A stretch of 61,270 nt of DNA, the filler included, from Dugesia japonica (taxonomy: Eukaryota), in NCBI GenBank assembly GCA_001938525.1. It is 6 parts of 6 records of this genome, joined end to end, with 100 filler letters (N's around TTAATTAATTAA, not from the genome) between each part and the next. Parts side by side here need not be neighbours in the genome. Positions count along the whole stretch, not along the records: positions 31,682 to 41,409 come from MQRL01623878.1; positions 41,510 to 49,758 come from MQRL01508671.1; 4 more parts are not named here. One strand, 5' to 3'. The translations under genes were made by a program, and so were the position numbers. A model generated the notes under the pieces. The model made no database searches and had not been told where the DNA came from. It saw only the letters and a list, made by a program, of their open reading frames with translations. Of this stretch, positions 5,255 through 49,889 are shown piece by piece; the stretch's first letter is position 1; every line of letters begins with the position of its first letter.

Positions 5255-5325
5255 TTCTTTTCGCACACACGTAAATTCTCGCTAATTTTGATAATTGTGG
5301 AAACGAATTTCTGTTGGACATTTTA
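5255..5325 (-). mobile_element. possible hAT C-terminal dimerisation domain remnant
   Basis: Minus translation NSFPQLSKLARIYVCA resembles the FPxLxxLARxYL hAT motif; very short. Confidence 0.35.
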
Positions 5326-8850: not shown

Positions 8851-8899
8851 ATAATTATGTTGGGTTTTTAGGATTTTAAATAATTTGAATTTAATATCT

Positions 8900-9120
8900 G
8901 CATTCGTCGACATTAATTATTTTCCTAGATACATAAGTGCTATCTTTTTCGTCTAGGGGCATACCTAAAAACCACAAGCATTTGAGTCAACTCTGTGACA
9001 TGCCCCTCTTTTTAGCGCGACTTTGTGGTATCGCGTCTTACGTTTCTTTTTCATGAACCCCCATCTCAATCACGCTTATTTGCTCAGTATTGATTTTACA
9101 TAAATCAGGTTTGATAAAAA
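8900..9120 (-). mobile_element. restriction-like endonuclease (RLE) fragment of a non-LTR retrotransposon
   Basis: Minus translation FIKPDLCKINTEQISVIEMG is a PD-(D/E)xK-type RLE motif; truncated by the scaffold end. Confidence 0.45.
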
Positions 9121-9220
9121 NNNNNNNNNNNNNNNNNNNNNNNNNNNNNNNNNNNNNNNNNNNNTTAATTAATTAANNNNNNNNNNNNNNNNNNNNNNNN
9201 NNNNNNNNNNNNNNNNNNNN
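9121..9220. other. artificial 100-nt scaffold spacer (44N-TTAATTAATTAA-44N); also at 20724-20823, 31582-31681, 41410-41509, 49759-49858
   Basis: Identical 12-mer with stops in all six frames, centred in N runs five times. Confidence 0.95.
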
Positions 9221-10310: not shown

Positions 10311-11469
10311 AAAATAATTTATTGCACCGGTTCATAGATTATCGCTGTATCATAATGCAAATAATTGAGGATGCTTAATGACCAATAATTCTCTCTATTA
10401 AAAGTGAAAATATCAACATTTTGTGTTAACTTTATCATTAAATAAATAAAATTTTCATCAATATTGGATTTTTTGATTAATCACTAACAAAAATGGTAAG
10501 TAATTGATTAATTTTATTATATAATATAACATTCAAAATTCAAACTAAACACTCACTAATAAAGAAAGTGATTCTGCAACGAGAGGGTTATTCAGCTGTT
10601 GTAGACCGATATCCAATATTTTCCGATATATCCGATATTTTCGTAGGTAGTTTAAATAGACAACTTCTCAGAGTGAATTCGTCTATAACACTTCCACAAG
10701 ATTCTTCTGCGATTTTACTTCTCCTTTCCTTGTTTTTTGCACTATGATTACTGCTTCTGTCCCACTGATTTATTCGACCGAAAATATCACACTGATTTAT
10801 TTAATCGNNNNNNNNNNNNNNNNNNNNNNNNNNNNNNNNNNNNNNNNNNNNNNNNNNNNNNNNNNGTTCTGCACAACTGCTAGAATTTAACTGGCTATTA
10901 TTTTTAAATCTGATTTTTTTGGTTCATATTTTAGAATTTTTCTGCAAATTCCGACCACTCTATTGGTGCCTATTTTTAGGACATCTTGTGATTCTTATGC
11001 CTTTGTTTTTCGTTTATTCTATGACATCTAATTGGCCAAATCTTTGAACCCATTTTATGAACCCTGCTGGTGATGATAGTACTTCATGATTAATATCATA
11101 GCATTACTTGTGCCGATAGCTTCTCGATCTTTTTTCCCCATTCTTTTTTGGCTTTCCTGAGAGAAGATATCCCGCTTCTACTGATTTTCGTCGTAATTAA
11201 TTTCTTTTTTCTGCAATAATTAATTAATTTTCTTTCGTTATTTCTGATTATAAATTATAATTTCCATAATTGCAGTTGATTATTATTACTTTTATTATTA
11301 ACTTTATCGCTTCCTCATTTTTTTACTGTATTTCTTCTGATCTTCTTTCAATTATTTCTTTCTAATTTATTATCAAAATGAAAATCACTATTAATTAGCC
11401 CTTCCACTTCACTTTATTTCTTCTTAATAACCAAAGCTTGGGCCCCCTGATTATATTTTCTTCTTTTAT

Positions 11470-11950
11470 CAGGTGTTTCAACCCAACAAAATGATGAAGT
11501 TGCACATGTATTTTACAGCATAAGTAGAAATATTAAAATTTGGCGGGGCAAAGAAATATCAACTTTCAATCCAAACTTTCGGAAAAAATGAAAGTGCTCA
11601 TAGTAGCATTTCCCGCATCTTACATCATTGAGTATGGATTCAATGCAGTAACTAATATTCTCAACAATCAAAGAAACAATCTGGATGTTGCTAAGAGAGG
11701 TGATTTGAAACTGCTTCTCATCCATCTGAAACAAGATATTAAGTCTTTGGCATTAAAACACCAAGCGAATGGTATGATTGACTCGGAAATGTCTAACACT
11801 GCTGTATCAGTCATATGACATTCTGTCTTGTTAGTAAACAGTATTTGAATTTAAATTAGTTTTGTAAATTTTAGGTGGGTGATAGACTTATTTATAGATG
11901 AAAATTTAGTGAAAAAGGGTGTTAGGCTAAAAAAGATTGAATGCCACTAT
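11470..11950 (+). mobile_element. hAT (Buster/ZBED8-like) transposon 3' end
   Basis: ORF 11540-11818 AFPASYIIEYGFNAV..NQRNNLDV..RGDLKL..HQA matches the Buster/ZBED8 C-terminus; degenerate 3' TIR at ~11935-11950. Confidence 0.75.
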
Positions 11951-11954
11951 TCTA

Positions 11955-12180
11955 AACATACATTCAAATTTAAGAATTCAAATTATTTACATCAATTTGT
12001 TACCAAATTTAATATTTTAGAAATCACGATATATTAAGTATTAATAGTTTGTTCATGATTTCAAACAAAAAATAATAACTCCTGAAGAAGATATAATCGA
12101 AAATTTTGGGAAAAAATAAAAAAGTTTTTTTTGAAAATTTTTTTGTTACTTTAATTAAAATATTAAAAAGAAACATTTTT
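11955..12180 (+). mobile_element. Penelope-like 3' end with minimal hammerhead core
   Basis: HTFKFKNS..FNILE GIY-YIG C-terminal-like remnant followed by CCTGAAGAAGATATAATCGAAAATTTTGGG at 12081-12110. Confidence 0.55.
12079..12110 (+). ncRNA. candidate minimal type I hammerhead ribozyme
   Basis: CUGAAGA core, GAU/AUC helix II, GAAA, short AAUUU helix III, U-U cleavage site, and GGG able to pair with the upstream CUC (helix I). Confidence 0.5.
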
Positions 12181-12570
12181 GATCTACGCCGTAGTTTATT
12201 TTCGTAATTTTGAAAAATATTTAATTTTTTCTATTTAAAATATTTAAATCTGTATAAAAAATGATAATACAAGGTTCTAATTTTATTACGTTTACAATTT
12301 GATGGTGAATTTTTATCGTTACATAAAATATACTATTACTTTGAATTGTTCCCATCTGAAAAAATTGGCTACAATGGATTAATTATTTAAAAAAAATTTC
12401 TTTAAAAACATGATTAAATTTTATTCCCTTCCTAAAATCTTTAAACTGTTTAAAAATAGATAAATGTAAATAATTGTTTTACAGTTGCAATTATTGTGAG
12501 AATAATTGTTGGACGTAACCATTGATCGTTTTTCATTATTCATTTAAAATTAAAGCTTCGACTTTAAAGT

Positions 12571-12683
12571 TTGGCTTTTGATAATAATTCTATATATTTG
12601 ACTTTGTCTTCGTCAGGAATTGAAAACAAGTCAATTCGTGATGAAGACAAAGTCGAATATATAGAATTATTATCAAAAGCCAA
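12571..12683. repeat. 53-bp-arm inverted repeat of a Penelope tail (7-nt loop)
   Basis: Arms 12571-12623 and 12631-12683 are reverse complements at 50/53 positions; weaker similarity extends to ~12525 and ~12740. Confidence 0.9.
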
Positions 12684-12932
12684 AAAACAAATTTTGATCG
12701 AAGCTTTTATTTTAAAAAATGTAAATAAATCTGCGATTTCGCTTTTAGGTATTTTAGTTTGACACATTTTTTTAAATAAAGAAATTACAATTTTGTGAAA
12801 CAGATTCAATTTTTTTATTTAAAACATTGAAACTAAATAATAAAATTGCAAAAAGTAATCCCATGCAGTATCATATCAACACTTGGCTAAGATTTTATTT
12901 GGCACAAAGTTTCAGTGTCGAATCTAAAATTT

Positions 12933-13705
12933 TTATTTGCTGAAAGTGACTTTGTTTTGACAAACCACTAAATTATCACTTAAAGTTTCCATTAAAGGTA
13001 ATTGATCCATTGACACTGAAACTATATTTTCATCAAGGATATTTGAATAAGTATCAGTGGAAATATTATAATTGCACGACGGATGAGAATGAGGATTATA
13101 GGAACCCGTTGATAAAGACGAACACAATGACTGCGTTTGTCTCGAGTCACTAAATCCACTGGCAATTAAACCTGATCGATGACAACAACATTGATTGTTA
13201 GCTGAAGAGGAATTTCCGGTTGCTCCATAATAAGAATTACAGTGATAAATATGACAAGGTGGACATGAAACTGTGTTAAATCCACTGAATTGATGCTGAG
13301 TATTGCAATACATATGTTGATGTGGATATGAATTATTGGGACCAAAATAAACAGGTGTATTATCTTGAATAATATTAGTTGGTGTTTGACAATTTATAAT
13401 ATTAAAAGAATTGTTTCCAGAATTCATACAAGGAGGATTATAAGAATGATTATAGAATGAAGATAACTGAGATTTAGAGGTTTCAAATGCCATGGGTGGA
13501 TTCTGAGAATGTGAAAAGTAGTGTTCGAGTTTTACAGCTGCAGTTTCAGATAAAGATGTATAATTTACGTTGTTTGAATGAAATGGAGTTTTTTCGCCAT
13601 TTAAATTTACAGCACTTTTCGCTGAACTCAGCGAACCGATTCCGGAACTAACTTCTGAAAGAGCTCCAATAACTGAGGATATTTCATTGAACTTTGAATC
13701 TTCCT
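12933..13705 (-). CDS. terminal coding exon of a host gene; Ser/Asn/His/Cys-rich low-complexity region, product unknown
   Basis: Frame open for ~257 codons from the acceptor TTTTCTTTGTAG|AG (exon start 13705) to the stop at 12933. No TE motifs or disablements. Upstream exons not identified. Confidence 0.65.
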
Positions 13706-19960: not shown

Positions 19961-21569
19961 GACTTGATCTTGATAACATTTGACTCGGAATTAAAAACTG
20001 CCTATAAATTTTCTAAAGAACGTTTTTTGTCAAATGCTTCGTTCTCGCTGGAAGGAGTGTAGCGCACTGTATCACTTATAAGGATAATAATTATAATTAT
20101 AATTAAATAATAATTTTTCGTTAAACATTTTATCGCCATTGGAATCAGCATAAAAAACTGTATATACATTGTTTCTACGAAAATGTTTTTTTCACAATGT
20201 ATCTTCCCTCGGCCGATGAAGTAATATCGAAATTTGGCTTTTGATATAAATATAAAATTAAGATAAGATTGTCTCGAGAACATTTATCCTAAAATATTCC
20301 CTTTTTTATTAAAATAGCAGTAAAGGTACATAACAGTTAATTAGGACAGCTTTCATTTTTAAATATCTTATGATACAAACCTGATATTGGTTGATGATAA
20401 ACACAATTATTTAGTTTAAATTTTAGTGAGTCTTATACGTAAGAAGTTATTAAAGATTTCAACTTTTAAAATCGTATAAAACCGTTAATTTTAAACATAC
20501 TGTTTGAAAAGCGATATCATTTGATAGAAAATAAAAATTAAAATATATAACACTAAAATCATTTCGAGAATAAGTGTTTTTCTTACGGTGCTATCAGTAA
20601 AACCAGAAATTCAATTCTACGGTGGTCAGTGCCAATTTGCTGATTTGAAACCACTATCATCAAAAAGGGAATCGAAAACCATCTACACATTGCCTACGAC
20701 TACTATCGAAAAATGCTTCCTTCNNNNNNNNNNNNNNNNNNNNNNNNNNNNNNNNNNNNNNNNNNNNTTAATTAATTAANNNNNNNNNNNNNNNNNNNNN
20801 NNNNNNNNNNNNNNNNNNNNNNNTTTCATCTTTTCATCTTGAATTACTGTTTGTTTTTCATTAATATTGATGGTTGCAATGATATTTTCTATTTCTTTTT
20901 GATTAGTAACATTTTCAAGTCCATTTTCTCCTTGAACAGATTTTTCAAGAAACATTTCACAAGTATTCATTTTGTAAAANNNNNNNNNNNNNNNNNNNNN
21001 NNNNNNNNNNNNNNNNNNNNNNNNNNNNNNNNNNNNNNNNNNNNNNNNNNNNNNNNNNNNNNNNNNNNNNNNNNNNNNNNNNNNNNNNNNNNNNNNNNNN
21101 NNNNNNNNNNNTGTGTGTATCACAACTAGTATATAAGCAAATGTTTACATAACATTAATCACTTTTACAAATTAAAAAATGAAAGAAAACCAACTCACTA
21201 AGGAAAATGTCTCAAAAATAACTGTGGAACTTGGAAAAATTACAGATTTCCATAATTACAAGTTGTTCTTTTTGAAGACTCCAATTATCTATGACTTCAA
21301 ATTAATTATTTTTTATTTCAATAAAAAGATCCAAATTTAGTTTGTTTCTATGTGGAATTCATGAGTAGGATAGAAATATACTTAATGTTTGCTTAGTGTT
21401 ACGTTTTTTCTTATACTGAAATAAATCTTTATGAAAACAAAGTCTTTTTAATTTTAATAGCAAATAATAAACTTATNNNNNNNNNNNNNNNNNNNNNNNN
21501 NNNNNNNNNNNNNNNNNNNNNNNNNNNNNNNNNNNNNNNNNNNNNNNNNNNNCTTCATAAACCTTAAAT

Positions 21570-30580: not shown

Positions 30581-30601
30581 TATAGTAATAATAATAATAA
30601 T
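30412..30601. repeat. (TAA)n microsatellite spanning a gap
   Basis: Directly visible. Confidence 0.97.
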
Positions 30602-31789
30602 GGGAACATCTCTGTGAGACTGGCGAGATCTGTCTTGCCGGGGTGCTCTACTTTATTTCGGCTACATAGGTGTTCTAGTAACTGGTGCAAACGCACCAGT
30701 TCCCACGCATAGCGTATAACTTGGCACGGCCCAAACAAAACATAAAGTTAACAAAATGATAAATACATCGCAAATATTAATTGATAAACGAGTTCCTTTA
30801 TTAAAAATCGTACTAATATCACATTTATAAAGTGTTCCTCAATCTAGAATTAGGCAGGCAGAATACTATAACTTCTATAACTCAGTTTAAGTCTAAATGC
30901 CACATTTTAGTAAAATTGCCAATGAACTGGTTTAATCTGATACCATTATCCTACTTATTTTCATTCATTGCCTCAATGGTTGTTTTCACTGAATTGCACA
31001 AGCGAAAATTCTTCGTCATCTGTTTGCATTGTGACCTAACATTTTTATTGACATTGGGGCCTGAACAAATTTAACAAATTTTGAATAATTACAAAATTTT
31101 TTACAGTTTATGTAAAAGTTAATCAAAATGTTTATGTAAAAATTTATAGAATAATATATAAAATATTACTATAAAAGTATCTCACATGAATTGAAATTGT
31201 ACGTTAAATTATAAACAAAAAAATCTAATTAAAATTAATAGAAGGAATCACTTTTAGATATTATTCGTTTAGACCATGTACATACATTTTTTTAAAAAAT
31301 CTGATTTTAACAGAAATCATACAATCACTTTTGGCAGAGAAAAATAAATATCAAAGTGAAAATTAGCCATACTACATTCCAGCAAGAACAAAGTATTTTT
31401 AAATAGTAGAATCGTGTAATCTATTGACTCTGTTTTAATCTGAGTTCAGCGATATCAAATTTGTCATTATACGACTAGATTCAACCACTAAAATTTTAAA
31501 TCAAATATACTTAATTGTAAACACAGACGAGCGATTTTCATTTTTCGAAACATGTTTATGAGACATTTCTATCTTACTTTANNNNNNNNNNNNNNNNNNN
31601 NNNNNNNNNNNNNNNNNNNNNNNNNTTAATTAATTAANNNNNNNNNNNNNNNNNNNNNNNNNNNNNNNNNNNNNNNNNNNNATTTTTTCGAAATTACCAT
31701 CTTCAACTGAGGAATTATTATTTCCAAAGCCGAGTTTCTTTAATAGATTATCAGATACAGCTAAAGAGTAGCTTCAAACAACAAAAGAC

Positions 31790-33850
31790 TTTGCGTTGTT
31801 CAATCAGATGAAATTATCGTTTGCTTTTGATATGCTGATGCGCTACGATGCTAAGGAATTATGGTTTTGGAAAAAATAAGAGAAATTGAGAAATGATCCA
31901 ATCAAATTTTTGAACGTTGGTTTCAAGAATCATTCATAGTTCAAGAAACATTGGTTGATAAAGTTTCGACCTTGTCAAAAATATTGCAGAAATCAAATGA
32001 AAACTATGGAAATTTTGAAATGAGAGTTAGAAAGTTAGTAAATGAAATATTTTCAAGTAAAACGTCATTAGATGAAATAGCTATATTGTTTATAACTAAT
32101 GGCATACGGAGCAAATAGTTGAAGGAATGATTTGTCCTCCAACTAGAGCTAACAGATATTCAACGAAGATAATTGGCTACTAAATTGGATAACCTAATAC
32201 CAGCACACTCTGTAAGTGTGGTGAAAGAGAGTCATGCTGATTCAATAAAAAAGAATATATTTCAATCCAAATTTGGAAACAATCATCCGAAGAGAAGTGT
32301 TCAAAGAAACACAAATATCAAAGGCCGGCAAACTCGCTTTTAAGAAGATCTACATTTCGAACAAAGCAAGCAGATACAAAGGCAAGGTCAGTACAATAAT
32401 CTCCTGCAGTATTCTTTGAAACATTAAGTAAATAAAGTATTTTGTAAAGCTAAAGTAATTATACCGCAACGAAACGAAATCCTAAAGACAGAAGCTTGTT
32501 TTTGATGTAGAGAAAATAATCATAGAAAGATAAATAGTCCATTGAAAGGAAAATGCTTAATTTGTGAAAAGGAAGGTCATAGTTTTCGGGATTGTTTATT
32601 AATTCGAATAAAAGATTTTCCGGTGTCTTAAGTTTTGTGTATTGTATAAGAGGATGATATTTGATCCTGTACAAGGGAATCGATAGATTATATACATAAT
32701 ATCCCTACGGACGACGACGGTATAAAAATAATTGTCAACCCACTGCATCTATCTCATCAGTGAGATTACAATAACCGATCGTAAAACCAAAGATGTAAGA
32801 ATGATATTTAACAAAAAAAAGTATTTCAGAAGTAAGATGGAATAGGATTGAGTATAATGCAGTGAAATGGATATAAAGTTGAAATTTTATTGGATTCAGA
32901 AGCATCAATATCAGTAATGAGTGCAAAGTTTTGGAGAAGATTTAGATCACCGGCGTTATCACAGTCACAGATTGTGTTATCAGGAGTTTTTTCAGACCAA
33001 GGAGAAAGATATACTGGTAAAACTTAATGACATTTACATTGGGAAACAAAGAGAAAAAGAGGTAGTAATTGTCAAAGATATTCGTCCAGAATTTTTTGGG
33101 GGCATTGATATGATGAGGATATTTGGAATGAAGATAACCGAAGTTGATTTTATTGATTCAAAGGATGTTTTTGAGCCAGTTGTTGAAAATTCAAAAAGAG
33201 TGAGAAATGTTCTGAGTTTCAAAGGAATCTCAATCAGAAAATCAGAAGACTAATAGAAGAACACGTAGAGATATTTATCACATTGAATTTGATCTTGGAA
33301 TTACAACAATAATGCAACATCACACTGAAACAAAGAAAGGATCAATAATGTTAAATTCTAGAAGACAACCAATGCATTTGGAAAGCAAAATTGATGAGTT
33401 ATTGGGAAACATTATAAAAGTAAACATTATCCAGAGTTGTAGAAGTCTGTAGAATTCACCATTAGTAATTGTACTGAAAAAAAGACGTAACAATACAAAT
33501 GTGTCTGGATTTCCGGAAATTAAATTCAATTACAGAGAAATACTCCTTTCCTGTGTCTGATACTTAACTACTTTTAGCATACTATCAAATTGAGTTAAGT
33601 GAAGAATCGAAGTTGAAGACAAGTTCCAGTACGAAAATGGGGCAGTTTTGTTTTAATCGCATGTCATTTGAATTGTGCATGGCACCAGCAAGTTTAAAAG
33701 TTTGAGTCATCAATTAATCGACGGAATGTTGTATAAAGGATAAATAATATACGTTGATGATATTTTCATAGATGGACAAACTCAACAAGAGCATGGTGAA
33801 CGGGTTGATAATATTTTTTACTCAAATAAGCAGGTTTAAAGATCACGGTT
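31790..33850 (+). mobile_element. degenerate Gypsy gag-PR-RT (same family as 14.5-19.3 kb)
   Basis: gag similarity, knuckle CLIC..GH (~32550), protease ILLDSEASISVM (~32885), RT FSTKMGQFCFNRMSF and YVDDIF (~33750). Confidence 0.8.
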
Positions 33851-33859
33851 TTGATTATT

Positions 33860-36800
33860 TATTCCTTTTTGTAGTGTACTTGAAACTGGTATTTCTGTAA
33901 AAGTAAGTTCCATTTAGTAGTTTTGTTTCTCTTGATTTTATTTGTAGGCAGCCATGACAAAGGTTTGTGATTAGATTACAGGAAAAAATGGCAACTATAT
34001 TAGTAATAATGAAATTGCTCAATTGCGTAAACAATTGCGTATAGCTATTTTTCAATCGTTGACCATCTATGATGTGACTCAGTTAACTTCTTTGATTGAA
34101 AAGAAATAGGGTGTCCATTATCAACGAATTTTTGAGATAGAACAGCTTCAACTGTTTTGTCCAAGACATGTGTCTAAACATAAAATATTTTATCATGGTC
34201 TGTCATTCTAAATATAGATGCAGTCGTCAGCATCTCTTTTAATTTCTTGAATCTCTCTTCACATTCTGAATTTCACTTTACTTTGTCACACGTCTTCTTA
34301 TTTAAGAGATCTGTTAGTAGAGAAGCAATGAGATCTAAATTATTGATATGAACCCTGTAATAATTTAGCATTCCCATCAACTAGTGAACCTTTTTCTTTG
34401 ATTTAGGGCGGGGAAGATAATATATTATCTTTACTTTGTCTGTCATTGGGGCAACCTCTCCATTTACGATCATCTTACCTAGAAACTCGGTTTTAAACAT
34501 CATAAGATTACTCTTTATAGGACTAACTGTAAGACTGGTTGCCAATGATGCTTTTAGTACCTTATTTAAAGTTTCAATATGCTCTTGGTTTGTATATAAA
34601 TAGACTATAATATCATCTAACCAAGCAGCAGTAATAAAAATAATAAGCAGTAATAGGAATATTTTTAAGTAGACTATTCATCATTCTTTGATAAGTTTCT
34701 GAGGCATGTTTAAATCCAAATGACATTCTTTTTAACTGATAAAGACAAAAGGAGTAATAATGCACTTTAAGGTTAGTCCTGGAATTTTAGTGGCACCTGA
34801 TAATATCCCTTTGTTAGATCAATTGTACTAATATATTTTGAATTTCCTAACGAACCGATTATTTTCTCGATCTCTGGCATCAAATAGTAGTCAGAAAGTG
34901 CCTTTTCATTAATTTTCCAATAATCCAGTACTAATCTTAGTGTTCCATTTTTTTGAAACGAATAAGGTAGGACTGGCGTACGAACTTGGGGATTCTTTAA
35001 TTACATCATCTTAAATATTGGGTTGGCAAGAAAGTAACTGCCGATTTTACATAAAGACATTTTAATTCAATTTAACTGCATTAAAAATAAAGTAATCAGT
35101 GTTTAAATAATAATAATAGATGTCTATGGATTCAAATTTAAATCTGAATTCAAATTTAAATTTATTACTAAATTTAAATCAGTAAGCTAATTTCATAAAT
35201 TGCTTTATATATTCTTTTATTAGTATGGAAGATCGGAAAACGTATTTGCGACACATTTTGTTATTTACTATCAGAAAGGAAAAAATGCTTCACAGGCATT
35301 CAACAAAATATGTTAAGTATTTGGCGAGGATGTCTAAAAGAACGCCAATGTCGAAATTGGTTCAAAAAATTCCGCAGGGGTGATTTTTCACTCAAAGATG
35401 AGCAACGTGCTGGGCGTCCACTAGTTGTGAATGATGATGAAATAAAACATTTAATTAAGGAGGATTGACATAGTAAAACGCGTGACATTGCATGGAAGCT
35501 CAACGTATCCCATAGCACCATCGAAAGCCGTATCAAGCATATTGGATACGTTAAAANNNTCGATTTATGGGTTCCTTACCAACTTAAAGAAATTCACCTA
35601 AAACAACGTATTGACATGTGTGATTTGCTTAGGAAAGGCAAGTACAAATGTTCATTTTTGAAACAAATAGTAACGGGCGATGAAAAATGGATATCCTACA
35701 ACACTGTTCATAGGAAAAGATCATGGTGTAAGTTACGGGAAGCAGCGCAGATATCAGCCAAGGTTGATAAGCATCCAAAGAAAGTTATGCTCTGCGTATG
35801 GTGGGATTATCAGGGAATTATCTATTTTGAAAGTTTGTCAGGCAGCCAAAAGATAAATTCTGAAATCTACATTAATCAGTTGACAAAATTGAACACGACA
35901 ATCTAAGAAAAACGTCCAAAATTGGCGAACCGTCAAGGTGTAGTCTTTCACTATGATAATGCCAAACCACATACATCTTTGTTCACTAGGCAAAAATTAT
36001 TGAACCTTGGTTGGGACGTATTGCCACATCCTAATTTTCTGGAAATAACATAAAATTCTCAGAATCACTGTCTGATCCATATTTTCATGTGATTTTTTCT
36101 AATTTCCTTCTCATTTCATCAATTTCTGTCTCAGATGTTCCTTTGAATTCATTTTCAATTGGAAAAGTCGCATTTACTACTGGATTCTTTGCAATTTTAA
36201 CTGATTTCTTTAGTATTGGCTTTTGAAATCGTTCAACATTGTTTGGACATGATCGTGCTATATGACCATATTTTTGCATGAATAGCATTGCTACTGCCTT
36301 TTGAAATTTAGCGCATTCCTTTGCGGTGAAGGTGAAGTTGAAGGGCTACGGGACTTTGGAGCATAACAATCTCGTGCTGAGTGTCCCATTTTTCGACAAT
36401 TATCACATTTTATTATTCTTTTTCTATTTTCATGTTCTCCTTTATTACGTAATTTCGTGCGACATTGATTTGCAGTATGACCTCTATTCTGGCATCTAAA
36501 ACAAGTTATTGTTCGTTTTGGCGACACTTGTCGAAAATTATTACTTTTTTCAAATGATTTTGATCGTCTATTATTTCTCGGAGATGGTGGATTAAATGTT
36601 TTTTGGCTTTGTATTGGAGTTTTTATTAAAATTAGATGTTTCTGAGTAAGGTCTCTGAAATTTTGCCATTTCCGTGTAATCTACAGTTGATGTTTTTGTT
36701 GTAACAGTAACATTCATTTCAATTTTCATTGCTTTTTTAACAAGTTCATCAAAATTTTGATATCCCATTACACATAATGTGGTTCGAATATTTTGGTGGA

Positions 36801-37620
36801 CTCCGGTTAGAAATTGATCTTGCCGAATAATTTTAATGTGATCTCCCCAATTTTCTCGTAAACCGAATGCTTTTTCTGCCAATGTACTCAACTCGAAAGC
36901 AATTTCACTAACTGACACTTCTGCAGTTTGTATTCGATTGTAAACCTTTTTTCGCACAATTCGGCCAATATCACAACTAACTAGTTTTGCTCCTAAAGCA
37001 TCTTTAGAATTCTTCCAAGTATCCAATTGAGCTACTTCTAACTGACAATAAACATCTCTCGCTGCTCCTTTTAAATATAACGGTAATCGTGTAACCATAA
37101 CTTTATCCGTCCATCCATTGGCTTTACTATACATGTAGTAATCTCGCATAAAATCAATAAGTTCAACTGAATCACCTCCATATTGAGAAACGGGCAATTT
37201 CTGACAATTGGAAACATTATTCTCATTCATCTCTCCAAGATCATTTGGATTGTTTAACATATTAATCTCAACTTCTGTTTTGATTTGTCAATTTTTCAAA
37301 TTATATTGTCGTTCTCCGACAATTCGATTCCTTCTGTTTCTGGGCACTTGAATTCGTAGTTACAACTACTACAATAAATTTCTGGGAAGTGACAGTTTCC
37401 CTTTGCTCAAATTGTTGAAATAACTCCCTTTTCAACAAATTTCTAGAATAACTTTGGAAGTGAAAGCTTCCAAACCACAAAATTTTCTTCTCGAATTAAT
37501 TTAACACCTTCTTTTCGGGCTCATCAATTATGTCGGGGTAAACACGACGCTTGAGCTCTATTCAAGTTGAATATAATTAAATATCTGACTGAGTTCAAAA
37601 AGGTGCATCTCTGTTAATTA
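33860..37620 (-). mobile_element. Gypsy element (LTR end-gag-[mariner]-RT-RH), degenerate
   Basis: LTR end ..CCGACA at 37531; gag ORF 36592-37260 (FMRDY..ANGWTDK..LPLYLKGAAR); CCHC knuckles CFRCQNRGHTANQC and CDNCRKMGHSARDC (36291-36527); RT KESPSSYASP, LRLVLDY and WLDDII at 35010-34600. Confidence 0.88.
35018..36032 (+). mobile_element. mariner transposon (mellifera-subfamily-like), 3'-truncated, pseudogenised
   Basis: TA then TIR TTGGGTTGGCAAGAAAGTAACTGCCGATTTT; ATG at 35226; WVPYQL, IVTGDEKW, HPKKVMLCVWWD, DNAKPH and GWDVLPHP; ends just before YSPDL. Confidence 0.93.
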
Positions 37621-38421
37621 ATTCTTCAAATAAATAATAATTACGTAAATTGAATTTGATCCAACTGAGTAAATTTTATTANNNNNNNNNNNNNNNNNNN
37701 NNNNNNNNNNNNNNNNNNNNNNNNNNNNNNNNNNNNNNNNNNNNNNNNNNNNNNNNNNNNNNNNNNNNNNNNNNNNNNNNNNNNNNNNNNNNNNNNNNNN
37801 NNNNNNNNNNNNNNNNNNNNNNNNNNNNNNNNNNNNNNNNNNNNNNNNNNNNNNNNNNNNNNNNNNNNNNNNNNNNNNNNNNNNNNNNNNNNNNNNNAAA
37901 TTTCCAATCAAATGATTTGGTCACATCGAAATCCCATTGGTCGCACATCAACTTTTTAATTTTCGCTATCAGCAGAGGGTTTGGGATCGAATCCCTTAAC
38001 ATTTTAAAATAACTCAATTTCCTCTCAAAATTGTTAGTAACCTCTATATATCTCATGTATAAAATATTTTGTATTCAAATTAATTATTTTATCTAAATTT
38101 AATTATTTAAAGTTTTCATAATGTGTTTTTAACCACCTTCTCATCCACAAAAATAATTCCACATTATTTACGATGATTTGTGGTGTTGGGACGTCATTTT
38201 AAATTATATATTTATATTTATTTACAAACTGTATTTCTTTTTAGATACACCCTTTTATCATAAATCAATTGTTTGTTTCATTATTCATACTGATTTTGNN
38301 NNNNNNNNNNNNNNNNNNNNNNNNNNNNNNNNNNNNNNNNNNNNNNNNTTGATATGTTTTAATTTATTTTGAGCTTTTGGAATTTCAATTTTTATATTTT
38401 TATTTTCCCAACTATTACAAT

Positions 38422-38741
38422 ATAGACACAATAAAAATAGAGGATTATATTGCTGACAAATATTTTGTAGAAAAAGGTAGTATTTTATTTAAATTATAAT
38501 AATTAATTTTTATTGTTTAGATATGATTCTTGAGATATTGGAAGAAGAATTCATAAATCTTAAGAATGAATCAATATACTGGGCACCCGAAGTATACTGG
38601 TACAAAATCATGAAGTATACATGGATCGATATAAATACTATAATGAAATTATACTTGGATGAACCATTTAGTTGTACATCATTATGTGACTGTTGCTCCC
38701 AATTAAAGTTAAGAAGAATTATCAATAGTTTCCTTAAATAA
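38422..38741 (+). CDS. orphan small gene 1 of array (putative 2 exons), unknown product
   Basis: ORF 38523-38741 preceded by acceptor TTGTTTAG (38520); in-frame upstream mini-exon ..IEDYIADKYFVEK via a 43-nt GT-AG intron (38478-38520); no intact ATG in the mini-exon. Confidence 0.4.
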
Positions 38742-39113
38742 ATATTAGTCATTACTTTATTGTTATTATGTATTATTAAATAGCTACGTTAATCTAGTAT
38801 CGAATATAATGTATACTATACCTCCGGAAAGTCACTTGATTCAATGGTTTTTATATGATTTATACTAATTTTTTTTTAAAGTTTTAATGTTAATCTCTTA
38901 ATTTTTCTATTTTGCCCTATTTTTTCTAACTTGGCCGATTTCCACATAGTTTCCTCAAATTCCACTTATTTTGTCCGATTTGCCTATATTTTTCTCTGTT
39001 TTATACCTCATTTACCCTATTTCTTCATATTTTGTTCGCATTTATGGAATAAATATTAATCACTGCCTTATAAAACTTTCCAATTTTTCTATGTAATTCC
39101 CCTATTGTAGATC

Positions 39114-39296
39114 ATGCCGGAAGAATTAAGAAACACATTGCGTTTCATTTTAAGGCTACACCAAATAGCACGGAGGAAACAACTTATCGGACATCGGTTG
39201 TTTCCTAATCTAATAGAACATCCCGATGAAACCGACTTGACTTGTTTCGTGAAGATGTTCCCCTTATCATTTCCAGTGGACCTTGATGAAGGGTAA
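39114..39296 (+). CDS. orphan small gene 2 of array, 60 aa, unknown product
   Basis: GC-richer ATG ORF after TTGTAG (39110); AATAAA at 39338. Confidence 0.4.
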   Translation: MPEELRNTLRFILRLHQIARRKQLIGHRLFPNLIEHPDETDLTCFVKMFPLSFPVDLDEG

Positions 39297-39451
39297 TAAC
39301 TCCTTGCAAAATGAAAGAACTGACATGTTTTGATCTAAATAAAATTAGTTTAACCATCTTATTTTGTTTATTTCTTCTTGGTTTGTCAGTTTATTATCGA
39401 TGATTTTCATCAGAATTACATATTTCTTTGTTAACGTTGATCATCATTGTA

Positions 39452-39880
39452 GAAACTAATAATAATAGGATTGAACACAAGTGGGAAGTATTATGGGACA
39501 GACGCACAGGACGTACCGTATTTAAGAAATACACTAACCCTCATGACCGTAATTCGGGCATCTTGGCTGACTACTCAAACATGTCTAATAAAGAGGCAGA
39601 TAAAAAAAGAAAATGGGCTGGGGCCTAGCGCCAAGCTTTTTATCAGTGGAGCGGCCCCGATCGCACCCAAGAAGTACTAAATCGTGTTACCATCATAGAT
39701 CCGGTAACTAATCAACTTACTAGTAAGTGGCAGGACGGTCCTGCATTGGTACATGTGTCGGTCGCCCATCTATCACGGAATACTAGGTTCACCATAGACA
39801 TAGGTAACACCTTATGGGATCTAAGCAACCTCGCTAGTGGAGGTGAATCGGAAAATAATGCACCAAACCCTGATGCGTAA
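39452..39880 (+). pseudogene. orphan small gene 3 of array (~143 codons, one internal TAG)
   Basis: One frame from the acceptor at 39452 to TAA 39880, interrupted only by TAG 39626-39628; AATAAA at 39950. Confidence 0.5.
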
Positions 39881-40091
39881 AGACGATGAATTATATTTTT
39901 TTTATTATTTAGTGGTTGTTCATTGACTAAAATATATAATACATGTGTTAATAAATTTAAACTTCCTTTTATTTTATCTGTTAAAGTCGACTTAATTTGA
40001 TTCTGTAATTTGATTAGTCGGTCTTTTTAGCTGGTTCACCTTAGTTGAAATATTTAAATTAACTACCAATTTCTACACTATATATTTTACA

Positions 40092-40451
40092 GTGCATGCA
40101 TCACTGAATCGAACTACAGCTCCAACCAAAAAGACGAGGGATGCCAGTGAGGACCAAGAAATGACTTGGGACCTATTTCGCCGCGCGAAACGTCGCTGGG
40201 AGGTGGAGATGGCCACCGCGAATAGTAAAGTTCTTCGGTAAAAGAAAAAATGTATCGCCTTTAAAAAGGAAGCCGAAGCCTCCCACATGCAAGAACGAGT
40301 ATGGAAAAAGCAAGTTGAGTCCTTTTCAGAAATTATCCGGCCCCACCATGACCGAGAGAATAAACTGGTTAGCGAAATCTTGCATCTCAAGAAGAAAATG
40401 CCTCTCGAACCTTTGATGATAGAGAAAAGTAACCAAAATACACGGCCATAG
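40092..40451 (+). pseudogene. orphan small gene 4 of array (~120 codons, one internal TAA; basic/helical)
   Basis: One frame from the acceptor TTTTACAG (40092) to TAG 40451, interrupted only by TAA 40239-40241; AATAAA at 40477. Confidence 0.5.
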
Positions 40452-40613
40452 TTATCTGTATTTATACGAATCCGTGAATAAACCTTTCTTCCTGTTATTA
40501 TGACTTCGTGTTCACTCGTCTATTACTTTTAAATTAAAATAAAATTGTTGTAGTCCAAGATTAGGACTAATATAGTTCATTGTTATTATATCTTTAATAT
40601 TTCACTCATTTTA

Positions 40614-41000
40614 GTGCCACATATTCAGTTTCCCCGTAGCCTAAGACGGTGTCACCGACTTATCCAGAAACTTCTGCTCGAGAGACATTTTAAGTGCCAA
40701 TCTGAGCGGGCTTTGCTCCATCATCTAACGCAACGTAATAAACTGATAAAGCGTTTGGACGCGATTGTAAAGAAACAAAATGACTTAGCTGAGGGCACAA
40801 AACAGCTCCTGCTGAACAAGGTTGAATTCTTGAAGCGCTACATTGCTGACCTGTCGCGCCAGCTAGGTAATGCTGCATACCTCAACTGGGATGATAATGA
40901 CGACTCAATATTGTTCAACTTAATACCAGAAGAGCCAACCCAGTGGTTAGACCCGGGTGCTCTAGATGGCATAAAATTTAGAAACAATATAATTTATTAG
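40614..41000 (+). CDS. orphan small gene 5 of array, 128 codons, probable coiled coil with acidic tail
   Basis: Intact GC-richer frame starting at the acceptor CATTTTAG (40614); Leu-periodic middle; AATAAA at 41030. Confidence 0.5.
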   Translation: MPHIQFPRSLRRCHRLIQKLLLERHFKCQSERALLHHLTQRNKLIKRLDAIVKKQNDLAEGTKQLLLNKVEFLKRYIADLSRQLGNAAYLNWDDNDDSILFNLIPEEPTQWLDPGALDGIKFRNNIIY

Positions 41001-41785
41001 TAAACTGGTGTTTTTTTTGGGTATTTTAAAATAAAAGGGAAATACTTGCGAACCCAAACCAAAGGTGTACGAATGTGAACCTCGCATGAAGTTGAAGGTC
41101 AACCGCTCTACACTGAATATCTGATCTTGGGACATTAGATTAAATTCTTGGAAGGGTCCCCTGAGGGCTGAATTTTCCCAGCCGCGCATTTTCTGTCACA
41201 AACTCAGGTGAAACCCCAACATTATTATTATTATTAATATTGCCCGAGACTTACTAATGTTAAAACTGCCCAGGAAAGATCGTTACAATACTTAAAATTT
41301 TTAGTTAATTTAAACAAGAAATCATAAAAATCAACTAATTTAAACAAAAGTAATTATTTTCACTACATGTTTAAACAAAAAATAATAAAATGCACGTTAT
41401 TTTAACAAANNNNNNNNNNNNNNNNNNNNNNNNNNNNNNNNNNNNNNNNNNNNTTAATTAATTAANNNNNNNNNNNNNNNNNNNNNNNNNNNNNNNNNNN
41501 NNNNNNNNNGAATGTAGAAGATGATTAATAAAATAAAAATGTACGAACAAAGTTTTAAAATTTATAGNNNNNNNNNNNNNNNNNNNNNNNNNNNNNNNNN
41601 NNNNNNNNNNNNNNNNNNNNNNNNNNNNNNNNNNNNNNNNNNNNNNNNNNNNNNNNNNNNNNNNNNNNNNNNNNNNNNNNNNNNNNNNNNNNNNNNNNNN
41701 NNNNNNNNNNNNNNNNNNNNNNNNNNNNNNNNNNNNNNNNNNNNNNNNNNNNNNNNNNNNNNNNNNNNNNNNNNNNNNNNNNNNN

Positions 41786-42853: not shown

Positions 42854-45800
42854 AGTATGGTTGTGAATGGTTTCATAAATTCTAGCTTAGCTACTATTGA
42901 AAAAAGATTTAAATTATCAAGCTTGGAATCATCATTTATAGCTTCCTCGTACGACATCGGTTGTATAGCAGTGGTAATTCCGGTTTCATATTTTGGTAAC
43001 AGGCATCACAAGGTGAAATGGATTGGTTTTGGATCAGTTATCATGGGCCTTGGGAGTTTTATTATGGGTTGTCCTCATTTCATTGCTGGTACATATGAAT
43101 ATGGTGTTCATTTATCAGTAAGAAACGATTTACTAACATATACAAACTGCTAATTTGTTTTTTAAAAATCCATTCTGTAAAAGTTTATTATAATTACATT
43201 TTCATAAAAATCAAAATTTCCTTTAAAGAATCGGTTTTATNNNNNNATAAAATTGGTTTATTTTATTAATTATTTAATTATCAATTAAATTCTAAATTAA
43301 AAGTTAAAAGCGTAAATCCAAACAAAATTTTTATTATATTTTCAATTCCTCTACTACAGATTGCAATTATGACGATATTCATTGTTATAAAAATTAAATA
43401 TTAAGCCTTGATAGTATTGATTGAAATAAAATTTAATTTATATATCAATAACGAAATTTATCGTAATAATGACGGAATAGATCGAAAACATGTATTTTAA
43501 ACAAGGTGATATTAAACGTTTTGTTTTGATTCACGCTTTTAACTTGTAATTTAAAATTAATTAAATGTTTGAAATAAACAAATAATTGCCGTAAAGTTAA
43601 TGAAAATTATAAACATTATCAACTACATTTTATAAATAATACTTTATAAATAAAACATAAGAGAATATTATATCACAGAGGTTTCCAAACTTGTTTAGTA
43701 TGTGATACTCTTTATCAAAGTTTTTCCAAGACGCACCAAATCAAATTTTTAATTTATAGGTTAATTAAAATTTACCCAGTTATTTATGTTTATGGTTTGA
43801 TAACACAATAAAGTACGTTAACTTATAATATTTTTCCATCTTTTTCCTATCTATCTATTCATCTATTTATCTATCTATATAGCTAAATATTGATGTCCAT
43901 CTTTCAACAATTTTATGTTAAAATTATTGAGCTATAAGAAAAGTGATTGCTTTTTATTTTATATAAAATAATATCGGTATAAAATATATTTATGTAATCA
44001 AAACGCCAACACCATAGATAGCATTTGGCAGATTAAAAGTGATTAAATTTTCTATTTCTTCCAGCAGAACTAAATACGGTGTTTATTGAAGAATAATTGG
44101 CATATTTTAAACTTTTCGTTTTCAATCAATTCAGATTTATGCTGAATAAAGAGAATCAGATTGTATTGGCTTTTTTAAATACTTCAACCTAAAAAATGCA
44201 TTATATTCCTGTCCCGTAATTTGGTTTGATGAAAAATATCTGAACTAACCTTTCGATGAAAATCTACGCCAATCGACTAGATAGTTAGCCGAATAATGAA
44301 AGTCTTTATTTCATAGGAAATTTTCAAACATTCGAAGCATTGATTTCCTGTCGATTGAGTGATAACAACCGCAACAATAATGCCGTGAAGTATTTGAATC
44401 AAGGCCGGTAGATTTGATCGCTGATGCATTGCAAAACCTGTTGAACATTAGAAAACAGTTGTAAATAACAACAGAAAAAACCGTATTGATAATTAAATTG
44501 ATTACTTGATATTTTTTGCAATAATTTTCTAAGTCTTATTATCAATTTCATCCTAGGATGAAATACCACTATGTAGAACTGAGCCTGTGGTTGAAAACTG
44601 TACTAGTTCAACTGAACTCAATTCATTGAGGAATTATAAGTACATTTTTTATCTTGGACATTTTGTAATTGGAATCGGATCAGCACCATTATTTACTTTG
44701 GGCATTGCTTATATTGAACAAATTGTTGATGTGGCAACATCAGCATTATATATCGGAATATCTACAGCTATTACAGCTATTGGACCGGCAGTTGGCTATG
44801 TGGTATTCGGTGTTTTCCTAAAGATTTATGTTGATATTGTGATTCCAACTAACGAAATGACTCCAGAAAACACAGATATTTGGATAGGTGCATGGTGGCT
44901 GGGGTTTATAATTTCTGGGGTAGCATTTATCGTGTTTGCTTTACCTCTCATATTTTTTCCAAAGTCCGATTTTCTTTATACGAGACCAAAATCTTCATTT
45001 CATAAAAGGCTTATATTTAACGATTTCAAAGAGATTTATCAAATGATGAAAACGATTCTGAAAAATTTACCATACAATTGTTTGAATATTGCGACGGCTT
45101 TAACATGTTAGTTTAATTTGTTTTACTAGATTCAACTCCAATAACATTTTTTTATTTAATAAAATTTAAAAAAAATAATTTTGAAAATTAATTAAATTTA
45201 TTAATTAATGAACTTGTTAATTCTACACTTTAATTGGAATGATTGTGATATATGAGAATAAATATTTGCTACGAAGAATATTAATTATGTTTTTAATGTT
45301 TTTGTTTCAATATTATATTTTAAAAAATTAATTAGTTTTTGAATTTTTTATTGTGAGTATTAGAATCGTATTGATCATTAGAATAATTCAAAAAATCATT
45401 AGAAGGATAATTCATGTTTTCGGAAATTTATTCGCAATATTTAATAATCAATTCTAATAAACTCTGTATAAATATGTAGAATTATACAAAGTTAAAGATT
45501 CGAGGATTTCGTCTATTACCGAACTTTTACAGATTAAGCAAAATGACCTCTCTTTAAGAGAATTTATTACAAAAAATTGAGAGGTTATTTATTTAAAAGT
45601 CAACCAGAATTGAACAGCGAGAACAGAAAAAAGACTTTAATATTCGCTTTTTTATTTGGATTGAACGTTAAAAAAGTGGCAGTAGCAGTTCAATTTCTTA
45701 AGCCAGAATCATTATACGAAGTTTATAACTTTGTAAAAAAACGAAATTAAAAACGAAAGCAAGGAAAATCTGAGACAAATTAAAACACAACATGACTGAT

Positions 45801-48800
45801 CAGACGAAATTCGTTCACTAAAACAGAAGGTGAGAGAATTGGAACAAATGATAGTAAAGTAAATCTAGAGATATAAAGAACGGAAANNATAGATTTGAAT
45901 TGAATAACACAAGGACTAATAATGAAAGTCGGGATTGAAATATCCAAATTAAAGATATTAAATGCTTTAACTGACCATTTTGTGAGAAATTGTTAAAAAC
46001 CAACTGTGTGTAAAAATGCAAAGAGGTTGGCCATTTAGATAGATTTTGCAGAATTAGAAAAATGAAAAAGGTCAGATATATTAATGAAAATGATAGTAAA
46101 AATATGGAATTCGACGAAATCAGATCGACTTCAACGAGATCAGAAATGTCCAGCATGGAGACCAATCATGCATTGAACGAAATAATTAAGATAAAAGGTA
46201 ATAAAAATTAATTGTTATACTAAAAAAATTATGAATTCAGCTCAATACATCAACAGTCATGGAGCCATATCAAAGTTTAAAAATAAAGCAAAAATACTGA
46301 TTTCAGAGAATCACTCAGAATTCGCTCAAAATAAGCCATTAGTCCAAGCGAGAATAAAGCAAAAATGGGTAGCGAAACTAATAGATAGTGGAGCAGAATC
46401 AAATGTAATGGATTATAATTTATTATGTGAATTGAGAAAAAGTAACAAACGGACAAAAAAAACAAAAAGAATGTACTGTGCAAATGAATCGCCAATTAAA
46501 GTTGTTGGGGGTTGCGAACTAGTAATTAGAGAAAAAGAATTGACACTANNNNNNNNNNNNNNNNNNNNNNNNNNNNNNNNNNNNNNNNNNNNNNNNNNNN
46601 NNNNNNNNNNNNNNNNNNNNNNNNTTGTGCCACAGGATGACTGATTATATATATCAAGAATCAAGCTATACCATTTGTATCAAAGGTTTGTGATGAAGGA
46701 GCGGAAAACTAACAAGCACCAATCTTAGGAGTCACGATTCAGGTGCTTTAAAAAATGAGACTCAATATTGCTCTTCAGGCATCATTTTGGACGAAACTGT
46801 AGTTTTCGAAAAGCATAAAGGATATTTTGTACGTGGATTAGTTGACTGTGATGAATTCAAAATTAAAAAAGAAATCTTCGTAGGTTATAAAGATAAACTA
46901 TCAAATTTAGAATTGCAAAAGATAGAATTTATGCAACCAGCTTGAAAATTCTCAAAAATTGGATAGATGTCATTCCATTCGTTGGAATGGGTATGAGAAT
47001 AACAAAAAACGAAACAACTAATTATTCTCCCTTTGAAATAGGTTTTGACAAACCATATCAAGCTTATTTAAATAACGAACAAGTTAACTCGAAAAACAGC
47101 ATCAATATTTAGAGTAAATTTAGAAAGAATAAATCAAAATTTAAAAACAAAAGAGAATGTAATTATTAATAATAACCTTCAAATAAAAATTTGCGATATG
47201 GTAATGTTCAAATTAGAAAAGAAATAAATGCTAAAAAAAACGATACAAAAGACCATCTCAAGTTACGGAAATAATACCATACGATAATATAAGAATGAGT
47301 TACAAAGGGAAATTTCTAATTCGTAATGTTAATCAAATGAAAAGATTCATAATAGAATACCCAGAGGAGAAAGGAGAAAAGAGTCTTAAGAACACAACAA
47401 TAATACGCCAATCAAAAAGAAGTTCAATAATCAAACCACAAGAATTAACAGCTGAGGAAGACGAAATCATANNNGAGAAAGACGTAAACCAACAAGATTC
47501 CGGGAATTCGAATAATAAAAAGAGGGATGTGATATGATATAAAAATGAAGTGTTTAAATATTCATATTTTGGAAGAAGATAATTTGAACCTGTTTGATTT
47601 GAATGAATATTAATTAGTAATTTATCATTAACACGTATATGAATAATTCCATAAATTGATTTGAAATAAAAATCAGAAAATCTAGAATTTTATTAACTGT
47701 TTAAATTAAATCTTGTATTTTAAGTGATGAAAGGATAAAGTAACATATTTTGGCAAATAATAAATAGAGATCTGATGAAATTCTATACTAATTATTTTTA
47801 ATTATAAAAAAAATAGTTTTGACTAATAAGATTAAATTTTTTGTGGGAATACAAACAAAACATGAATTCAAATTCGTCATTACAACTGTTAACTAAATAA
47901 AATTATATTACCGTTATTTCATGCGTATAAATCGCTCCTTGTATTCTATCTAAAGACAAGTCCGGCTACTACTAAGTAGCGACTTATATGATAGTTTGTT
48001 TTCATCTATGTCATTATTAATTTTTATACGTAATGGAAAATTCAGTTTTCTATTTACCATATGCTTATATTTCTGCATAATTTACGCAGGTGCGACTTAT
48101 AGCCTGACAAATACTGTATATATAATATAATATTAACAATTTGAATGAGTTGTTTGTTTTTCTGTTTTGTTTGTTTACGAACAACTCAATAATCCAATAC
48201 TTCTGGAAACAGAATCTAACTGTGTGTTTATCAATGTTCGGCCATAATAAAAACTTCACTCACAAAACTGACGTAAAATGATATATTTTTAAGAAATTTA
48301 ATCTGACTTTATGTTTATAATCAAATCAACTAATATGCTTTAACTATTTTAGATGGGTGCTTCGCAACTTTCTATTTAAACAAACATTTATTTAGAACCT
48401 CCTTACTAAATTCCACTCTCATTTTTTAGCAATTAATAGTTAATAGCAATTTATAGTAGTGTTTTAATTTATATATTACTAGCCATACCAGATCACGAAT
48501 TGCTGTCGCTCAGTTTGATTGAATGAATAAAAGAGAATGAATTTTACACTGCTTATGGATATATAATACTTTTTGTTATTCCATTGTTTGTGTAAATATA
48601 AAGATGGTTTGGTTTGCAGACTCTAGAATATGTAACAAAAAATTATCCATTTGAGAAACAATTCATCAAAATTTCTAGGCTATTAGTGAAATATTTTCGG
48701 ATTTTCTTGACATTTTTATTTATAAAGATATCAATATTAGACTAATTATTACTAGATTAACCCTGTAGAATTCAGTAGTTCCACATTGCGAATTATATAA

Positions 48801-49713
48801 ATTTAAATTCTTAGCAATGAATTAGGCGCATGCCTGAATCATAACCTGCAATCAGTTATACCACATGCAAGTTTTAATTGATTATTTAAAATTTAAATAA
48901 ATAAAAATTTTTCTTTGATTAAGTTAATAAGAAAAAATCATCGATGTCTTCAAAGGATTAAATATTAGAAAAATTCATGATAAGATAGCTAATACTAGAC
49001 TCGTTTATAATTTATTCATGTTTAGATTATAATTTTATTATTAATTCATAATAATTAATTTTCATTATTAAAATAATTTCAAGAGGAAGCACAATATTGT
49101 GTTTTAAAAACATTTCAACATTAATTGTTTTTTATATATCTTTACATAATTAGTGTTTCCTTTTTCAGTGTTATCATTAAGCGGTTTGTCAACGTATGGT
49201 CCGAAATATTTGGAAAACACGTTTGGTTTAACAGCCAGTATTTCCACAATAACTACTGGTTAACAAATTGTATACTTAGCATATTCGTTTATATTTAATC
49301 TAGGAATTGTAACTGTTCCTACTTTGGCCACTGGAGCATTAATTGGAGGAATTATACTGAGTTATTTTGACTGGAGACTTGATGGAACTATGGTATTCAT
49401 GTCTGCTACTACACTTATTAGTATTCCAATGCTTTTTACATTTTCATTTGAATGTGAAGTAGCAAAGATGGCTGGAATTGATGTTCCATATGATAATTCC
49501 CCGTATAAACTATGAATATTAATTAATTATTACATAACATTTTACATTTTATTAAGTCTTAATACCATAAATTTAACTCAAATGTGTAATAAAGATTGTT
49601 TCTGCAGTTTATCTTACAAATATTTCCGACCAACATGTGGAGAAGATGGCAAAATTTATTACTCTCCATGCATTGCAGGATGTAACGAAAGAGTGACATT
49701 AAACGACAAAAAT
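42854..49713 (+). CDS. SLCO: organic anion transporting polypeptide (OATP/SLCO family, SLCO4-like), multi-exon, partial
   Basis: Phase-compatible GT-AG exons 42854-43117, 44557-45106, 49169-49258, 49304-49502 and 49557-49713. Motifs TIEKRFKLSS, SSYDIG, VSYFG, OATP signature WIGAWWLGF, PKYLE, and Kazal-like CNKDCFC..PTCGEDGKIYYSPCIAGC. First exon(s) uncertain; last TM segments missing at the scaffold end. Confidence 0.95.
43676..44460. mobile_element. hAT-derived fragment in OATP intron
   Basis: Begins with a hAT-type TIR CAGAGGTTTCCAAACT; right boundary uncertain. Confidence 0.45.
45244..47640 (+). mobile_element. deleted Gypsy element in OATP intron
   Basis: TGTGATAT LTR-like starts at 45244 and 47528, the latter after PPT AAAAGAGGGA; knuckle remnant CKEVGHLDRFC; protease KLIDSGAESNVM..CANESPIKVVG (ORF 46231-46644). 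Confidence 0.75.
47911..48116. mobile_element. pogo-type MITE
   Basis: TA|CCGTTATTT..TATAAATCGCTCC at left and GGTGCGACTTATAGCCTGACAAATACTG|TA at right; internal GCGACTTATA repeat. Confidence 0.7.
48478..48730 (+). mobile_element. possible non-autonomous Helitron/Helentron-associated element
   Basis: Start ACTAG..CACGAATTGCTGTCGC and end TTTTATTTATAAAGAT resemble HINE/DINE-type elements; recognised from memory only. Confidence 0.35.
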
Positions 49714-49889
49714 GTATGATATGATTTAGTTTAAAACAATTTCTTTCAAATAATTGATNNNNNNNNNNNNNNNNNNNNNNNNNNNNNNNNNNNNNNNNNN
49801 NNTTAATTAATTAANNNNNNNNNNNNNNNNNNNNNNNNNNNNNNNNNNNNNNNNNNNNTGGATCAGAAGAAGATAGAAAAAGTCTATTA

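Follow-up and report, generated by a model that had tools for sequence, protein, structure and literature searches.

A candidate array of five antisense accessory genes in a probable Ty3/Gypsy long terminal repeat of Dugesia japonica

In complex retroviruses, small accessory genes are tied to the long terminal repeat (LTR): sag of mouse mammary tumour virus and nef of human immunodeficiency virus sit in the U3 region. In human T-lymphotropic virus, antisense genes are driven from a promoter in the 3′ LTR (PMC7264820). Antisense additional open reading frames (ORFs) are described for Grande of maize (gene23), RIRE2 of rice, Retand (TRP28) and Boty of Botrytis (PMC7264820; PMC11963269). The giant Gypsy-like planarian elements Burro/GYPSM1 have an internal region of 25 kb, a total length over 30 kb and accessory ORFs. 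They encode a polyprotein of about 4,900 amino acids with an env between gag and pol and with MATH, BIR and ankyrin domains (PMC6431247). For errantiviruses of the springer subclade, an env start codon completed by leader splicing was reported (bioRxiv 10.1101/2023.08.03.551782). Here, a window of 61,270 nucleotides of D. japonica (assembly GCA_001938525.1) was analysed, that is, the whole stretch of six joined parts. Its positions 38400–41040 hold five small frames (ORF1 to ORF5), which an original prediction had described as co-oriented orphan genes, each with a splice acceptor, a frame and an AATAAA poly(A) signal.

We read the five frames as antisense accessory genes within a likely 5′ LTR of a Ty3/Gypsy element, with one leader spliced to five alternative last exons, and assign this a probability of roughly 0.6. 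A single pre-mRNA would arise from an antisense promoter near the LTR end proximal to the primer-binding site (PBS). A non-coding leader, with A as its last base, would be joined to one of the five acceptors, and each mRNA would terminate at the AATAAA of its own unit. ORF1, ORF2 and ORF3 would be translated from start codons of their own; for ORF4 and ORF5, the A of AUG would come from the leader. This fits the earlier idea of an alternatively spliced accessory cassette of a mobile element, with a Ty3/Gypsy LTR as its most likely carrier in place of the DNA virus or Polinton that had been proposed.

Elements of the Grande/Retand type are alike in that their orphan ORFs run antisense to gag-pol within a Ty3/Gypsy element, are conserved across copies and have been proposed as regulators. 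There, the ORFs are internal, between pol and the 3′ LTR, whereas the array in the window lies inside the probable LTR, upstream of PBS and gag, and comprises five micro-genes that have separate acceptors and poly(A) signals. Burro/GYPSM1 shares the probable host group, a gag with three CCHC knuckles (not unique to Burro) and accessory ORFs; LTRs of several kb are implied by its internal and total lengths. The window element has no env, MATH, BIR or ankyrin region, the stretch after gag being deleted, and the available part of the Burro account names no LTR genes. The springer env is one sense gene with a start codon split as AU|G, whereas a split as A|UG is predicted here for two of five antisense genes. 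Complex retroviruses resemble the locus in linking small accessory genes, either antisense or spliced, to the LTR; each has one such gene rather than an array of alternative last exons, and no sequence or fold match to them was found. In the literature covered in part, including PMC6673714, PMC11410931, PMC8532177 and PMC13524379 but neither the original Burro description nor Repbase, no account of a gene array inside a retrotransposon LTR was found. The supplement of PMC13524379 lists six Schmidtea errantiviruses without LTR or PBS coordinates, and only the ENV sequence for the one examined.

All five frames are on the plus strand, with lengths of 72, 60, 142, 119 and 128 codons for ORF1 to ORF5. 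The five acceptors and five poly(A) signals were all confirmed at the predicted positions (Table 1, where ORF coordinates start at the acceptor AG). The GC contents are 0.29, 0.41, 0.45, 0.46 and 0.44, compared with 0.23–0.26 in the spacers and a window mean of 0.287; four of five frames are indeed GC-richer than the background. AATAAA is common in this AT-rich DNA, as the original prediction had cautioned: 11 plus-strand and 8 minus-strand copies in 38400–41040 show no enrichment of the motif as such. One copy lies −4 to +70 nt from the stop in 5/5 ORFs, for which the chance in the AT-rich background is 0.29^5, or ~0.002. By an ad hoc score of our own, ranked against the AGs of the window, four of five main acceptors are in the top 0.5–5.4%; that of ORF3 is ordinary (23%). 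When the dinucleotides of each block were shuffled 2000 times, a plus frame as open as the real one occurred with frequencies of 0, 0.11, 0.004, 0.04 and 0 for ORF1 to ORF5, values whose significance is overstated because the block boundaries were picked post hoc.

Coding status is supported for ORF2. A homologue is located at 30601–30702 on the minus strand (tblastn E 1e-5), and none of 300 shuffled ORF2 proteins reached E 1e-3. Over 26 hand-aligned codons, the proportions of synonymous and nonsynonymous differences were 0.93 (pS) and 0.27 (pN; Fisher p 1.5e-6). The dN/dS check among copies that had been proposed, run on this pair, revealed codon-level conservation. The fewest changes occurred at the second codon position, which fixes the coding strand. 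The pair shows that the ORF2 protein was under selection between the two copies. The homologue is part of a second, diverged relic of like design and like order of parts, which includes a T-rich tract, a decayed acceptor and start near 30731, and the ORF2 homologue cut by (TAA)n. It lies on the far side of a linker (31582–31681) and probably on another scaffold.

The ORF3 search had three matches. The outside homologue P0004 is a protein of 94 amino acids from a single contig in ENA (E 3e-13, 30/65 identical); it begins at the 39470 position, spans the internal stop of ORF3 and aligns over its first 65 residues only. The other two, P0005 and P0006, were weak multi-stretch matches and were not used. 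Armadillo matches of ORF3 in the PDB (E to 3e-10) were rejected: a single 16-residue stretch was summed over designed repeats, and no stretch passed alone. Starting from the ORF3 acceptor, another frame stays open for 75 codons and overlaps ORF3 (39453–39680), possibly by chance. Homologue searches found none for ORF5 among 14 candidates and none for ORF4 among 1. For the five ORFs, Pfam and PHROGs gave only weak coiled-coil-type matches under the cut-off and no family. The best PDB sequence match of ORF5 had E 0.07, and its structure model (pLDDT, the predicted local distance difference test, of 62; predicted helices 8–22, 31–54 and 60–85) had no match at E 0.001 in the PDB and viral structure libraries. 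The ORF3 model had a pLDDT of 38. ORF3 has a WW-like and ORF5 a helix-loop-helix look; these resemblances were unsupported.

The start regions suggest how the genes may be expressed. In ORF1 and ORF2, the ATG is 3–4 nt past the acceptor. The start position of ORF3 (39470–39472), 18 nt past the acceptor, is broken in the window copy, from which 18 aligned contigs differ at base 39472. An in-frame ATG at the acceptor is absent in the window copy for ORF3, ORF4 and ORF5. ORF3 and ORF4 each have one internal stop (39626–39628 and 40239–40241), which indicates that this cassette copy is decayed. The acceptors of both ORF4 and ORF5 read AG|TG with the TG in frame; among 564 strong acceptors of the background, 43 are followed by TG. 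Since these exons open with an in-frame TG, a leader ending in A would complete the AUG.

The carrier, 37531–41221, is very probably a 5′ LTR. Read on the minus strand, it starts with TGTTGGGG at 41221 and ends with CCCCGACA at 37531. The ends are TG...CA, with 8/9 terminal bases in an inverted repeat (inverted TGTYGGGGT). Between the PBS-like site and gag lies a leader of some 260 nt (37523 to 37261) that is free of ATG. The gag knuckles are at 36503, 36407 and 36287/36267; three database homologues share 52–56% identity, and a metagenome scan with gag P0003 gave no locus among 18. Reverse transcriptase (RT) and RNase H follow downstream on the LTR strand; with the intervening deletion, gag and RT/RNase H may stem from one or two source copies. 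The RNase H motifs were read by eye. The mariner fragment has a left terminal repeat; the right repeat was sought and had a best match of 15/30, so a deletion of unknown size took the right end together with the protease region. The RT/RNase H relic is without integrase and 3′ LTR and is cut at about 33850. There it abuts a Gypsy-like relic of the plus strand (31700–33850), the two elements meeting end to end. A target-site duplication is absent (left ATTA, right TTAT); the left flank is internal sequence. The (TTA)n tract at the outer end recurs in reads at the opposite end of further copies. In two RNA reads, an (ATT)n tract is fused to 37531, which would be expected of other copies whose end lies in a microsatellite. 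A 50-N gap at 38299 is bridged by one contig. The sole locus from a scan for the LTR-end pattern, L001, was a bacterial chance match.

Table 1. Coordinates of the candidate genes, their carrier and associated features in the window.
Feature	Coordinates	Strand	Description
ORF1	38520..38742	+	Acceptor, own ATG 38523, 72 codons, small Cys cluster, AATAAA (38737) overlapping stop
ORF2	39110..39343	+	Acceptor, own ATG 39114, 60 codons, EHxDETD..C..MFPL motif, AATAAA 39338
ORF3	39452..39955	+	Acceptor, frame up to 39880, stop 39626, AATAAA 39950
ORF4	40092..40482	+	Acceptor then in-frame TG, 119 codons, basic, helical, stop 40239, AATAAA 40477
ORF5	40614..41035	+	Acceptor then in-frame TG, 128 codons, without ATG, acidic tail, AATAAA 41030
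Probable 5′ LTR, Ty3/Gypsy	37531..41221	−	3691 nt including two assembly gaps
PBS-like site	37515..37526	−	4 nt beyond LTR end; sequence TGATGAGCCCG
Broken gag	36085..37260	−	Three CCHC-type knuckles, third split between frames; zf-CCHC E 5e-9
Mariner fragment between gag and RT	35016..36060	+	Transposase_1 E 1e-19
Decayed RT and RNase H	33855..35015	−	RVT_1 E 4e-5 and 3e-3, both under curated cut-off
(TTA)n tract at outer end	41222..41241	+	Probable insertion target, judged from sequence
Second diverged relic of like design	30601..31061	−	Acceptor, decayed ~85-codon frame, AATAAA 30802–30797

The cassette is repetitive. In one DNA run, 6089 contigs align to 4.1 kb of this stretch; summed contig depth is a relative measure and not a copy number. 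Where the unit begins on the left, between 37474 and 37610, depth rises stepwise from ~2,300 to 13,000. ORF1 is the module of highest copy (19,000–48,000), followed by ORF4 (4,000–13,000), ORF5 (~1,600) and ORF2–ORF3 (200–800). This ~100-fold spread suggests subfamilies carrying different cassettes. The drop from 48,000 to under 600 falls within 38870–39050, a part of the ORF1–ORF2 spacer that contains a weak tandem repeat of 19 nt as well as a further AATAAA (39048), and likely marks a boundary of subfamily modules.

From three raw-read RNA runs, 24, 617 and 27 reads aligned, most of them less than 95% alike and hence stemming from other copies. ORF1 was covered in 3/3 runs by few reads, and ORF4 and ORF5 faintly in 1/3, ORF4 at a depth of 1–2. 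The strand bias of ORF1 was opposite to that of gag in the two runs with gag-leader reads. In run X11, the plus/minus values for the comparison of ORF1 with gag were 2.9/5.4, 3.6/3.8 and 4.5/6.4 against 16.5/6.4 and 7.5/2.9. Run X10 had a like bias with very few reads, and its gag reads may be one molecule. The strongest RNA cover of the LTR in X11 was at 37885–38158 (depth 30–66, both directions), a region that may hold start sites or the R region.

Several observations weigh against the antisense gene array. The case for ORF1, ORF4 and ORF5 is one of anatomy, and for none of the five ORFs did the searches yield a family, a relative of solved structure or a fold. ORF1, ORF2 and ORF4 also have a stop-free frame on the minus strand, so openness alone cannot set the strand. 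The RNA depth of ORF2 and ORF3 was zero in 3/3 runs, and none of the reads listed for the three runs had a splice joint at the five acceptors. The best A|GT donor candidate (37669) was not kept in 18 reads diverging just before it. Genomic RNA would have to pass the eight minus-strand AATAAA motifs in the cassette. On the side of the carrier, the PBS-like TGATGAGCCCG starts with TGA and the intact TGG is absent, a second LTR was not found within the window, and a 216-N gap between cassette and PBS (37682–37897) is unbridged by any listed contig.

The last three points, together with the old nested character of the region, would also fit a 3.7-kb unit that is an independent element, either a solo LTR of another family or a non-autonomous element, brought beside an unrelated gag by nesting or a scaffolding join. 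The genes would then not be antisense to this gag. Against this, a target-site duplication is missing, and the end of the unit lies exactly 4 nt from the PBS-like site, followed by the ATG-free leader and gag; we consider this origin improbable. A polycistron within the same LTR, resolved by spliced-leader trans-splicing in the style of flatworm operons, is unlikely too, if slightly less so. As the original prediction had claimed, further AGs follow an AATAAA at distances of 75, 80 and 76 nt; one of the three has a good score (39413, 4%) and the other two are poor (37% and 25%). An AG lies 62–80 nt past the preceding AATAAA at 4/4 junctions and at ~66 nt in the second relic. The spacers of 156–369 nt (three of four under 300 nt, one of 369) are near the 300-bp gene-spacing threshold for operons of parasitic flatworms, and the flatworm spliced leaders reported all end in ATG (PMC12582326). 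Trans-splicing is also described for Schmidtea. A leader ending in AUG would keep the reading frame if joined to the ORF2 acceptor or to the upstream AG of ORF5 (40553, 148 open codons); this and the regular spacing keep trans-splicing alive. The reading phase disfavours it, since such a leader is in frame at only 1/5 main acceptors. It would yield 1, 4 and 9 codons at ORF1, ORF4 and ORF5, and at ORF3 the other frame of 75 codons. Among the reads listed, none had a spliced leader at the downstream acceptors, where RNA coverage was near zero.

The layout of tandem acceptor-ORF-poly(A) units resembles adenovirus late units, and the array had been proposed as an accessory cassette of an endogenous DNA virus or a Polinton. 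Polintons are present in planarians (PMC8532177). Of 31 window frames scanned in Pfam, none matched a polymerase B, a capsid protein, an ATPase or a viral protease; the expected linkage to such genes is lacking, and zinc knuckles of gag and an RT adjoin the cassette instead. Viral contigs had no relative of ORF1 (0/44) or of P0004 (0/19), no long inverted repeat pair around the cassette was among the 25 longest listed, and TG...CA ends stand beside a PBS-like site. A viral or Polinton origin is very improbable. The least probable account takes the array for lineage-specific genes in a host operon, or for frames that arose by chance in GC-richer DNA. In its favour, both AATAAA and AG occur often here, and ORF2 and ORF4 on their own are not very improbable. 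The operon that had been suggested is excluded by the repeat character of the locus, with thousands of contigs of one run aligning there. Together with the synonymous excess of ORF2 and the ORF3 homologue, copy number and codon-level conservation largely refute this account.

Elsewhere in the window, five identical N-TTAATTAATTA-N linkers (9121–9220, 20724–20823, 31582–31681, 41410–41509 and 49759–49858) are probably scaffold joins; the piece carrying the element is 31682–41409. At 9670–9696, a second GGTAAAACCCCAACA end followed by (ATA)n is near-identical to the end at 41207–41221. The fragment ahead of it (9221–9640) has what we take to be an R2-type non-LTR CCHC region. A Gypsy-like relic on the minus strand (5950–8855) contains two copies of a 175-nt repeat that are 87% alike, together with a PBS-like TGGTGGCAGC close to 8683 and a frame encoding a zinc knuckle at 7671–8105. 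A host OATP/SLCO transporter is represented by exons at 42854–49515 (Pfam E 3e-39), with Gypsy protease remnants in an intron (46195–46644).

The products of ORF1 to ORF5 are predicted to be small, basic and helical proteins (60–140 residues, several of them basic), and would most likely be regulators of element transcription, RNA handling or host silencing, a role suggested by analogy to retroviral accessory genes and to the antisense ORFs of elements in plants and fungi (PMC7264820; PMC11963269). The antisense RNA itself may have an extra effect. Planarian LTR elements are targets of somatic piRNA (PIWI-interacting RNA) control (PMC8532177). LTRs are usually taken as non-coding and solo LTRs as dead ends. 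Genes within an LTR would be duplicated by each replication, and solo LTRs would keep them. Tentatively, an animal Ty3/Gypsy lineage may have turned its LTR into a modular antisense unit with one leader, five last exons, swappable micro-genes and splice-made start codons, so that solo LTRs in their thousands would code for proteins able to affect the element or its host in trans. If true, a retrotransposon would have gained a set of accessory genes comparable to that of complex retroviruses, one that each replication copies and solo LTRs keep. The cassette would offer five orphan protein families and a direct test of splice-built start codons, in what is probably a model animal.

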